Shown one piece after another: positions 11,111 through 13,258 of a stretch of DNA of 64,000 nucleotides. Origin of the DNA: Myxococcota bacterium (lineage in GTDB: Bacteria > Myxococcota_A > SURF-8); the NCBI GenBank assembly GCA_963674735.2, contig CAXXQS010000001.1, positions 32,001 to 96,000 on the forward strand, given 5' to 3'. Within the stretch, counting starts at the first letter, position 1. Each line of letters begins with the position of its first letter. Position numbers and translations under genes: made by a program. A model generated the notes under the pieces. The model was not told the origin of the DNA. It was given only the letters and a program-made list of their open reading frames with translations, and searched no databases.

Positions 11111-11366
11111 GGCACACGTTGTCGATCTGAAGGCCTTCGTGCCGGAGTTGGTTTCCGAAAAGGCGGACGCATCGGGCGGCTGGACGCGCGGTTTCGTCAT
11201 CGCAGAACGCACGGGGCGGCCACCTTCGTCGGAGCAGGGCTCCTGTCCTGCTCTGATGGTTTGTCTTCAAACAAGGTTTTGCCATGTTTCCGGCGGAGAC
11301 GGTCCGGGTGAAAAGATCAAGACAAACTTGCGGAGCATGACAGAATAGTAGCGACTGTTATCGGTG

Positions 11367-12302
11367 TCAAGCGAAATTCGGGTTCCAGGCTTCGTTTTTC
11401 CGCATCATCGTGTTGAGAATGAGGACCAATTTTCGCATGCAGGCCACCACCGCCGTCATCTTCGGTTTGCCGCGTCCGACCAGCCGCTGGTAGTGTCCGC
11501 GAATCACCGGGTTGTGTTGAATCGCCACCAGCGTCGGCATGTAGAGCGCCGTGCGCAGGCGATGACGACCGCCGCCGGTCATGCGTTTACCCCGAAACGT
11601 TCCGCTGTCCCGATTCATGGGCGCCACGCCGATCAACGCCGCGATCTGCCGCCGGTTGTAGATCCCCAGCTCCGGCAGATCCGTCACCAGAAGATTCGCC
11701 GTGCACGCGCCGACGCCCGGCATCGTTTGGAGCCGCGCGGCCCGGTCGCTGCGCTCCCGATCCGATGCAATGGCCGCCGCGATGGCCCGATCCAGCCGCT
11801 CGATTTCCCGTTCGATCACCTCCAGAATGCGGTGCAGGCTTTGTCCGATCGTCCGATCGCCCACGTGTTCGGTGCGGTTTTTCTCCATCGTGCGCATGGC
11901 GACCAGCTGCCGCCTCCGTGAAGACAGGGCTTTTAACAGGAGGGCGGTTTCGCCGAGCGTTTCGTTCGGTGCGGGACGCATGGCGGCTGCGTAGCGTGCG
12001 ATGATGCCCGCATCGAGTCGATCCGTTTTCGCCATCACGCCGACGGCGCGGGCATAATCCCGGATGCGCCGGGGATTGACCACCGCCACCGGCCAACCCG
12101 CTTTCTGAAGACGTTTGCACAGCTCCCGTTCGTAGCCGCCGGTGGCTTCCATCACGACGCCCTCCACCTCGATCCGCTTCAACGAACGGACGAAGCGTGT
12201 CATGCCGGCTTTGGTGTAAGCGTAGCGGACGCACGTGCTTTCGCCGTCGACGGCGACATCGAAAACGGCTTTGCTGACGTCGATCCCGATCCATTTCTTC
12301 AT
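11367..12302 (-). CDS. IS110 family transposase/recombinase
   Basis: DEDD RuvC motifs GIDVSK, MEATG, KTDRLDA; PGVG; RDSG catalytic Ser; GKPK..A..ACMRKL. Confidence 0.95.
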   Translation of the reverse strand: MKKWIGIDVSKAVFDVAVDGESTCVRYAYTKAGMTRFVRSLKRIEVEGVVMEATGGYERELCKRLQKAGWPVAVVNPRRIRDYARAVGVMAKTDRLDAGIIARYAAAMRPAPNETLGETALLLKALSSRRRQLVAMRTMEKNRTEHVGDRTIGQSLHRILEVIEREIERLDRAIAAAIASDRERSDRAARLQTMPGVGACTANLLVTDLPELGIYNRRQIAALIGVAPMNRDSGTFRGKRMTGGGRHRLRTALYMPTLVAIQHNPVIRGHYQRLVGRGKPKMTAVVACMRKLVLILNTMMRKNEAWNPNFA

Positions 12303-12304
12303 GG

Positions 12305-12511
12305 CGCACCCTTCCTTGCCAATACGGGCTCATTTCGATTACAATGGCCCCTGCGACTGTTCGGGTTTTCCCGGACGAAACGGACGGCGGATCCGGCTAC
12401 AAAACGGGCTCATCAGGCCCCAGGATGGGACGATCTCGCCGCCCACCACGGCCTCCCGCTTGCTACGGGAGGTCGTTTCATCTTATCATCACAAACGATG
12501 ACAGTCGCTTG
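12305..12511 (-). ncRNA. Predicted IS110 bridge RNA in the left non-coding end
   Basis: On - strand in order: 5' hairpin, TCCCATCCT (target-left), GTAG (target-right), ACAGTCGC (donor-left), CAAG (donor-right); ends approximate. Confidence 0.75.
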
Positions 12512-12527
12512 AAAGGGATAATACAAG

Positions 12528-12600
12528 GATGGGCAACTTGTTGCCCATCGCGACATCAGACTAAACTCCTTGAAGATGGGCAACAAGTTGCCCATCCTAC
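12528..12600. repeat. REPIN: inverted pair of GATGGGCAAC..GTTGCCCATC REPs, left copy interrupted by IS110
   Basis: 12528-12549 and 12576-12600. Confidence 0.85.
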
Positions 12601-13258
12601 CACTGAAACTATTTGAATGTCTCAAACAGGGTTGCCCCCTGCTGGAGCGTGTCTTCCGATAGGCTCCTATTCCGCCCATACTTCGCTCCCTGCGCCGTTG
12701 CGGCGATTGACCGCAACCGCCGATTTTCGCCGTTTCGACAAAATCGCGTCGTCACCCCTAAATTTAGCCGCTTTGCCGGGGGGAGGTGGCGATGCGCTTA
12801 ATGCGTTCGTTGCGCCGTTTCGAGCCGGTCGTGGTTGCTTTTCGTGAAATCATTGGGTTTTTCGCCCGCGAGTTGGGGGGTAAAATAGTATTCCACGGAC
12901 CATACTAGGTTGGGCATAATACGTCACATCTGTTCGAACCTGAAACGACTCGGGAAGCGGCAAGAGGTCGGGACGATCGGCGGTAAGCCCCCCTCGGCTA
13001 ACGACAGAGTTCTTGTTATTCCAGTTATATAGACAGCTACAGTCACAAGCGCCGGGAGGGGGCAGACCCGTAAACACGTGGACGAAAGCGCTTTGATAAT
13101 CGTCTTAATATCGTATACTAAATATAATACATTTAAAAGAATTCAGTGTAATACTCTTAGTTTGTTGATATCACTGGCTTTTTCCCGATTTAGCGTTTCA
13201 GCGTCGAAATAGGGGCGGAAAACAGTACGCAAACCGGCTGTTAAGCTAGTGATAACGA

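Follow-up and report, generated by a model that had tools for sequence, protein, structure and literature searches.

A compact IS110-group insertion sequence in a Myxococcota genome with IS621-like guides matching a REP-like repeat

Is the short mobile element that interrupts a palindromic repeat in a Myxococcota bacterium a complete RNA-guided insertion sequence (IS), and can its target and its donor be read from its own ends? The element lies on the minus strand of a 64,000-nt stretch of assembly GCA_963674735.2 (contig CAXXQS010000001.1, positions 32,001 to 96,000), here called the window; all element coordinates below are positions in this window, and the element is read on the minus strand. 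The host genome (G000) is 5.26 Mb in 3 contigs. The original prediction had called the locus a complete IS110 bridge-recombinase system with readable guides, and the Pfam domains, the catalytic residues, the fold and the guide-flank matches described below all agree with it. We consider, with a probability of about 0.9, that the element is an insertion sequence of the IS110 group, intact and recently mobile, that works as IS621 does and that its left end probably encodes a bridge RNA. On this reading it adds a clean example to a mechanism that was already described in 2024; the mechanism is not new, and it is unchanged by this element.

Copies of the element and their insertion sites

The anatomy of the element is established by its two junctions, by its neighboring repeats and by the other copies in the genome, as follows.

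11352-12525, minus strand: insertion sequence, 1,174 bp, between two CT cores; sequence identity ends at these bases in 8/8 copies
12526-12527, minus strand: left CT core; CT is the sole sequence common to both junctions
11350-11351, minus strand: right CT core, read from the window sequence and the junctions of the copies
11348-11349, minus strand: right target AC; with the core it gives CTAC, the complement of the repeat's GTAG head, and CTAC follows the element in 8/8 copies
11352-11358, minus strand: left donor ACAGTCG, the final 7 bases of the right end
11367-12302, minus strand: recombinase gene, 311 aa, with D8, E52, D94, D97 and S233 (open reading frame, Pfam, structure alignment)
12528-12549, minus strand: REP-like palindrome GATGGGCAACAAGTTGCCCATC, present at all 8 insertions; its 3' arm CCCATC (12533-12528) is the left target
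12575-12600, minus strand: intact inverted partner repeat GTAGGATGGGCAACTTGTTGCCCATC, which shows the uninterrupted unit

The right end reads ...CTTGACACCGATAACAGTCG (left donor at 11358-11352), then CT (11351-11350) and then AC; the left flank reads ...GTTGCCCATC, then CT (12527-12526) and then the element start TGTATTAT (12525-12518). Between the stop codon and the element end there are 15 nt only, and the left end, measured from the element edge to the recombinase start codon, is 223 nt long. Taking out the element together with one CT restores GATGGGCAACAAGTTGCCCATCCTAC, which is the reverse complement of the intact neighbor repeat (12600-12575), so the empty target that had been proposed at the end of the repeat is indeed recovered.

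Eight copies, 100% identical across the 1,174 bp, are found at eight different loci of the host genome, and they account for all 8 of its PF01548 matches. Every copy has GATGGGCAACAAGTTGCCCATC-CT before it and CT-AC after it, all in the identical orientation, with the core dinucleotide CT at both junctions and no longer target duplication (8/8). None of the copies lies at an unrelated position: 8/8 insertions are at the same 10-bp site, CCCATC-CT-AC, in the repeat head. The flanks are otherwise unrelated, the longest stretch in common within 3 kb on each side being 114 bp at 85%, and the copies are therefore eight separate insertions, not duplicated segments; large IS-mediated duplications as the origin of the copies are ruled out by the same unrelated flanks.

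It might be argued that we are looking at a dead or domesticated copy family, which spread by recombination between the repeats rather than by RNA-guided transposition and whose left-end matches are leftovers. The repeats are multi-copy and could mediate rearrangement, and in contig data neither a circle nor a transcript was observed. However, the eight copies carry no substitution in 1,174 bp, their reading frame and catalytic residues are intact, their flanks are unrelated beyond the ~75-bp repeat unit and their junctions are base-exact in every case, which makes such a history very improbable. An intact and recently mobile insertion sequence remains our reading of this copy family, and it is the one carried through the following sections.

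The recombinase

The compact 311-aa ortholog that had been predicted corresponds to the open reading frame 12302-11367. Both an N-terminal DEDD RuvC-like domain (PF01548 at residues 5-146, E 3e-22, 79.5 bits against a cut-off of 29) and a C-terminal Tnp domain (PF02371 at residues 189-272, E 8e-19, 68.2 bits against a cut-off of 21.3) are recognized in it by Pfam. Among all solved structures, the protein matches only two, both over residues 4-300: ISCro4 (IS622; PDB 9T56), which is the best match at E 3.2e-37 and yet distant in this protein-level comparison, and IS621 (PDB 8WT6) at E 1.3e-34. The active site of IS621 is given as D11, E60, D102, D105 and S241-G242 (PMC11208158), and in a HMMER alignment to 8wt6_A these residues stand opposite D8, E52, D94, D97 and S233-G234 of the present protein. 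The catalytic residues are established further by their conservation, all five being invariant in an alignment of 26 clade proteins. The closest protein in a collection of 5.8 billion is 64% identical, and the matches in the protein atlas are IS110 clusters only.

Guides in the left end

Four short segments that match the target and the donor are found between the left edge of the element and the recombinase gene. They are placed in two internal loops of a predicted fold in the order left target guide (LTG), right target guide (RTG), left donor guide (LDG) and right donor guide (RDG).

12452-12472, minus strand: 5' stem-loop CCUCCCGUAGCAAGCGGGAGG (fold)
12382-12444, minus strand: target-binding loop (TBL) with outer stem, internal loop and apical hairpin (fold and alignment)
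12308-12366, minus strand: donor-binding loop (DBL), in which the outer stem ACCC/GGGU is followed by an internal loop and an apical hairpin; on its 3' side the DBL overlaps with the ribosome-binding site
12422-12429, minus strand: LTG CCCAUCCU, 5' side of the first loop; sense of CCCATC-CT (left target and core)
12397-12400, minus strand: RTG GUAG, 3' side of the first loop; complement of CT-AC, then handshake CC (12396-12395)
12353-12360, minus strand: LDG ACAGUCGC, 5' side of the second loop; sense of the right-end terminus ACAGTCG and the C of the core
12315-12323, minus strand: RDG AUUGGCAAG (AU-UG-GCAAG), 3' side of the second loop; pairs with CT-TGTAT (core and left-end start), then handshake GA (12314-12313)

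All strings lie where the original prediction had placed them on the minus strand, TCCCATCCT at 12430-12422, GTAG at 12400-12397, ACAGTCGC at 12360-12353 and CAAG at 12318-12315, and two of them needed adjustment. CAAG is present as a part of the RDG, the full guide being the 9-mer ATTGGCAAG at 12323-12315. The LTG had been given as an 8/9 match; its location and its match hold, and its first base is taken up below. At 8/8 copies CCCAUCCU fits CCCATC-CT and GUAG fits CT-AC. In the handshake positions of the element, C is complementary to donor G7, and G-A to target C7-T6. The guide matches are beyond chance: when a random 9-mer of the genome was compared with the left end in 20,000 trials, an 8/9 match came up 623 times (~3%), and the four guides in the correct order were reached by 0/20,000 shuffles of the left end.

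The length of the LTG deserves attention because the size of the site depends on it. The guide could be 9 nt long (UCCCAUCCU), the length that it has in IS621, and tolerate a mismatch at target position 1, the element and the mechanism being the same in that case. A natural guide-target mismatch, at position 4, is tolerated by IS621 (PMC11208160); one copy of a related element (genome G012) has T at target position 1 and would be a 9/9 match; and where the loop is longer by one nucleotide, as in 5 elements of the clade, the additional base fits target position 1 in 4. Against this, among the 36 elements with the same loop length as ours, the base that precedes the 8-mer agrees with target position 1 in 7 only, which is about chance, and is U in 26, and the C-G-U found there corresponds to the IS621 linker C47-U49. 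We regard the 9-nt guide as unlikely, and the T/U at 12430 is most likely a linker rather than a mismatched guide base. With the LTG read as 8 nt, the site therefore is most likely 10 bp long, CCCATC-CT-AC.

Fold and covariation of the left-end RNA

The predicted fold of the 223-nt left end has an energy of -93.9 kcal/mol (z = -4.1), and 0/200 shuffles were equally stable. Ten related left ends were aligned, taken from the host genome, four genomes of the same order, two metagenome-assembled genomes (MAGs) and others, and RNAalifold on these 10 sequences gave two internal loops, each with a closing hairpin. In the named 24-pair structure, 87.3% of 237 cells are paired, compared with 27-52% for slid controls, and 10 of the 24 pairs are altered on both sides. 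A covariance model built from the 10 aligned relatives matches over its full length, immediately ahead of the recombinase gene, in 97/100 related loci, among them 77/80 from metagenomes and two IS110 elements of E. coli plasmids. In the 97 distinct rows, pairing holds for 96.0% of 2,298 cells and compensatory change is seen in 22/24 pairs; this pairing was reached by 0/500 shuffles and slid controls gave 37-48%, with the reservation that the 97-row alignment was fitted to the covariance model and leans toward the structure. The fold is supported by covariation, and all four guides lie inside its two internal loops.

The guide code across the clade

Whether the loops are guides or ordinary RNA structure is addressed most directly by related elements that insert elsewhere. 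A scan of genome contigs with the single protein gave 10 loci; a genome search and an alignment-based metagenome scan were much more informative. The clade test was made on the 95 distinct RNAs of the model alignment, with element ends called automatically. The RTG is the reverse complement of the core and the right target, i.e., of the four bases past the right end, in 85/90 elements with 14 different dinucleotides; after permutation the mean was 13.7 and the maximum 26. The 8-mer of the left flank fits the loop at 7/8 or better in 43/72 elements, compared with a permuted mean of 4.3 and a maximum of 11. In 92/95 elements the LDG is found again at the right end; as a control, an LDG differing at 3 or more positions was present at the right end in 247 of 2,216 pairs. 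At the first handshake base, the TBL is complementary to donor position 7 in 89/92 and the DBL to target position 7 in 60/70, and the second handshake base does not co-vary (it pairs in 13/70).

Individual relatives, whose ends are delimited by their own multiple copies, illustrate this. The elements of genomes G012 (62% protein identity) and G048 (54%) are found at CCCGAC-CT-AC and have the guide CCCGACCU; a relative in a Terriglobia MAG (45%) is found at ACCGCCC-CT-AC and has ACCGCCCCA; and the element of G184, at CAGAGTT-CT-CG, has CAGAGUUCG and CGAG. In the relatives, then, the guides change together with the targets and the ends, and this co-variation of guides with flanks, established over the clade, is the strongest non-experimental test of the system. 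The roughly 95 natural relatives let the guide code be read straight from the flanks, and by such comparison most of the clade seemingly uses an 8-nt LTG reading a 10-bp site.

These data also bear on a simpler explanation, that the structured left end is a mere translational or transcriptional leader and that the protein alone picks the target. The 3' side of the donor loop does overlap the ribosome-binding site, and the fold therefore probably also affects translation. However, the loop sequences track the flanking target and the element ends over at least 90 elements and the stems change by compensation only, neither of which is predicted by a leader without guides, and we find this explanation extremely improbable. 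The left-end RNA as a bridge RNA, analogous to that of IS621, is kept as the interpretation.

Two further observations were made among the relatives. Four metagenome elements (L054, L056, L060 and L064; 52-54% identical protein) carry the same LTG, CCCAUCCU, and the site GCCCATC-CT-AC, and therefore the repeat head seems widespread among the hosts of the clade. In a Gemmatimonadales MAG, the right end of a relative is followed by one CT and then by a 70-bp partial copy of its own left end (L009:2443-2512, 97% identical) that ends within the LTG-encoding segment. By its appearance, either a tandem copy or a self-directed event has left this piece behind.

Promoter and proposed mechanism

12518-12523, minus strand: -10 hexamer TATTAT, left-end positions 3-8; same position in 9/9 relatives examined
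11365-11370, minus strand: -35 hexamer TTGACA in the right end, overlapping the TGA stop (11369-11367); 17 nt from the -10 hexamer only once the ends are joined

A promoter had been proposed to arise when the element circularizes, and the sequence has the geometry for it: with one CT kept at the joint, the joined ends would give TTGACA, a 17-nt spacer and TATTAT. TTGAnn stands exactly 17 nt from TATnnT in 8/9 elements examined.

From homology to IS621 we infer circle formation, transcription and RNA-dependent recombination in the following way. The element would leave its site as a circle, in which the right and left ends are joined via one CT core into a strong sigma-70 promoter, TTGACA-17-TATTAT. 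From this promoter the ~205-nt left end and then the recombinase gene would be transcribed. The first internal loop would read the host repeat, CCCAUCCU standing for CCCATC-CT and GUAG pairing with CT-AC, and the second would read the joined ends, ACAGUCGC standing for ACAGTCG-C and AU..GCAAG pairing with CT-TGTAT. Recombinase dimers on both loops would then join target and donor and swap strands at CT, and the outcome would be insertion in a single orientation between CCCATC-CT and AC, the GTAG head of the REP-like palindrome.

Integrated copies may have promoters of their own. The repeat gives TGGGCA-18-TATTAT (9/12 matches; 12518-12547, minus strand), which may drive weak transcription of the bridge RNA. 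IS621 RNA is described as only weakly expressed from integrated loci (PMC13626964), and the weaker promoter of the integrated copy fits that description. At the right end of this copy, TTGACA stands 17 nt from TATTCT in the flank (10/12 matches; 11342-11370, minus strand), which would make an outward-facing hybrid promoter directed at the DNA downstream of the element; the flanks of the other copies differ.

The locus is covered by three sequencing runs of one study, as Logan contigs, and no RNA run is among them. In the run contigs over 11200-12700, the element is collapsed into one 1,202-nt contig at ~5-8x the flank depth. In the second sample, run X3, the element contig breaks at 11733-11762 with a loose unrelated end, possibly a variant copy or an assembly fork.

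A leader segment complementary to the left donor guide

12501-12508, minus strand: leader segment GCGACUGU, exact complement of the LDG; left-end positions 18-25; pairs with the LDG in the minimum free energy fold

The 5' leader of the RNA contains a segment that could bear on when the donor loop is available. By computation, the 8 LDG bases are all unpaired with a probability of 1e-5, where the median of 66 elements is 1.6e-2 (rank 3/66); for the LTG the probability is 0.28. The same 8-mer is found at the same position in G036, and a G.U-compensated version, GCGAUUGU, in G054, the surrounding leader having diverged. Full 8/8 pairing of leader and LDG occurs in 3/62 elements only. With such a count, and with a score distribution equal to that of a reversed-guide decoy, an anti-LDG leader as a clade-wide feature was rejected.

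It is tempting to see in the 8-nt anti-guide of the element, G036 and G054 a built-in cis mask keeping the donor loop closed in the free RNA, which we consider doubtful; the leader 8-mer may mask the donor guide in this subclade specifically, or it may reflect shared ancestry without function. If true, recombinase binding or co-transcriptional folding would have to open the mask, whose effect could be to restrict donor-donor ("half-match") reactions or to set the time of excision. An inverted donor-like DNA site in the left end was set aside as a functional second donor; in G036 its core is CC, not CT.

Observations that weigh against an IS621-like system

Several results count against our interpretation. 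In Rfam, a library not known to include any bridge RNA model, the left end has no match at the gathering score, and the best hits are unrelated families at E 0.15-0.35. In the clade, the left flank fits the loop at fewer than 7/8 positions in 29/72 elements, and the site of the single-copy element of G036 fits only 6/9 guide positions; these mismatches are genuine, with a part of them maybe a matter of automatic end-calling. In the predicted free RNA, the LDG is sequestered in the leader helix and the donor loop is not formed. The joined donor sequence has 0 matches in the assembly, as expected for rare circles, and the contigs of the three runs contain no circle or empty-site joint, an uninformative result given that contigs drop rare forms.

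Comparison with known systems

IS621 of E. coli, also of the IS110 group, is the closest guide to how the element may work. Both have a two-domain DEDD/Ser recombinase with five catalytic residues, and in both the left-end RNA, predicted in our case, has a 5' stem-loop ahead of the target loop, which in turn precedes the donor loop (PMC11208160, PMC11208158). They have in common a 4-nt RTG, an 8-nt LDG, handshake dinucleotides and the CT core. The RDG is 9 nt long in either element, AU-NN-GCAAG, where two bases are skipped and one pair is G.T. The right donor is CT-TGTAT in both, and to the promoter that IS621 rebuilds across its joined ends corresponds a predicted one here. Insertion is at ...CCTAC, the GTAG head of a REP, in both, the IS621 target being ATCAGGCCTAC (PMC11208160).

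The predicted LTG-RTG-LDG-RDG layout agrees with the IS621 structure paper in its spacing as well as in its order, a comparison made on printed residue numbers and not on a sequence alignment of the RNAs. A C-G-U linker precedes the LTG and G-U follows each hairpin; 3 nt and then the 4-nt RTG come next, and 2-nt linkers flank the 8-nt LDG. The RDG consists of A-U, two skipped (flipped) bases, G opposite T and CAAG, followed by two handshake bases. Four bulged A's each lie 4-5 nt ahead of a linker.

There are also differences from IS621. The proteins align at E 1e-34 only, with 311 aa here and 326 aa in IS621, and the left end is 223 nt here compared with 191 bp. A donor and a target other than those of IS621 had been claimed, and rightly so: the left donor is ACAGTCG here and ACAGTAT in IS621, a difference of 2 nt at positions 6-7, judged from the donor oligonucleotide of PMC13396178, which contains the IS621 donor ACAGTATCTTGTAT; and the target here is CCCATC-CT-AC. 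The LTG is probably 8 nt, compared with 9 nt in IS621, and the element has an extra leader of ~30 nt with the LDG-complementary segment. By blastn, no DNA similarity to the element exists in 5,426 E. coli genomes. The IS110 elements of E. coli plasmids found by tblastn were considered as IS621 and rejected, their PDB E-values being 3e-29 and 5e-36 only. The element can be described as a probable compact natural bridge recombinase (311 aa, 1,174 bp) with a readable target and donor, the donor differing from that of IS621 at two positions; it might conceivably serve as an orthogonal one, as had been suggested.

In IS1111-group elements (seekRNA), which have the same recombinase family and RNA-guided site choice, the guide RNA lies downstream of the recombinase gene; the RNA of the present element is upstream of it, with only those 15 nt after the stop codon.

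ISPpu10 (bioRxiv 10.64898/2026.03.19.712850) and ISPpu9 (PMC12288879) of Pseudomonas putida are multi-copy IS110 elements that target REPs as ours does, and all their insertions are beside the GC-rich stem-loop of a repeated intergenic sequence. Here the hairpin itself is no more than a possible specificity determinant; in the relative G012, 2/5 insertions are at a guide-matching sequence without a palindrome.

The REP-like repeat family of the host

The interrupted repeat had been named a host GTAG REP (repetitive extragenic palindrome). Its palindromic shape and its copy number uphold the name; no RAYT-type gene lies nearby, and none of the 5 PF01797 matches in the genome is within 3 kb of a repeat. 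Because there is no Y1-transposase match within that distance, "REP" is used here as a description of shape and copy number. The repeat is a short multi-copy palindrome with a GTAG head, and its family is small and frequently arranged in inverted pairs (63 matches in a pattern search with 2 mismatches). Counted as exact matches, the target heads of the host genome are 16 empty and 8 occupied; the 16 empty ones are GTTGCCCATCCTAC sites, and one CCCATCCTAC lies outside any repeat. The element thus accounts for the interruption of a third of one small host repeat family (8/24 heads).

Away from the targeted repeats, two of the PF01797 matches are identical strong Y1-transposase genes, IS200-like (C1:107653-108018 and C1:1746961-1747326 of the host genome), and three are weak matches of 182-206 aa that could be RAYT-like. 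In some repeat variants the head reads GTAGGAGGGGCAAC, and the target that they would offer, CCCCTC-CT-AC, has a single mismatch to the guide; these (C1:2335483, C2:845150, C2:1066073, C2:1066475 and others) are all unoccupied, and the occupied sites are all perfect. The right flanks of two copies have 56 identical bases in common, and a second small repeat, GGAGCG[TC]GTCTCCGACGGGCTCC, is found 10-35 nt past the right end of three copies (C1:317530+, C1:2103623+ and C2:304757-).

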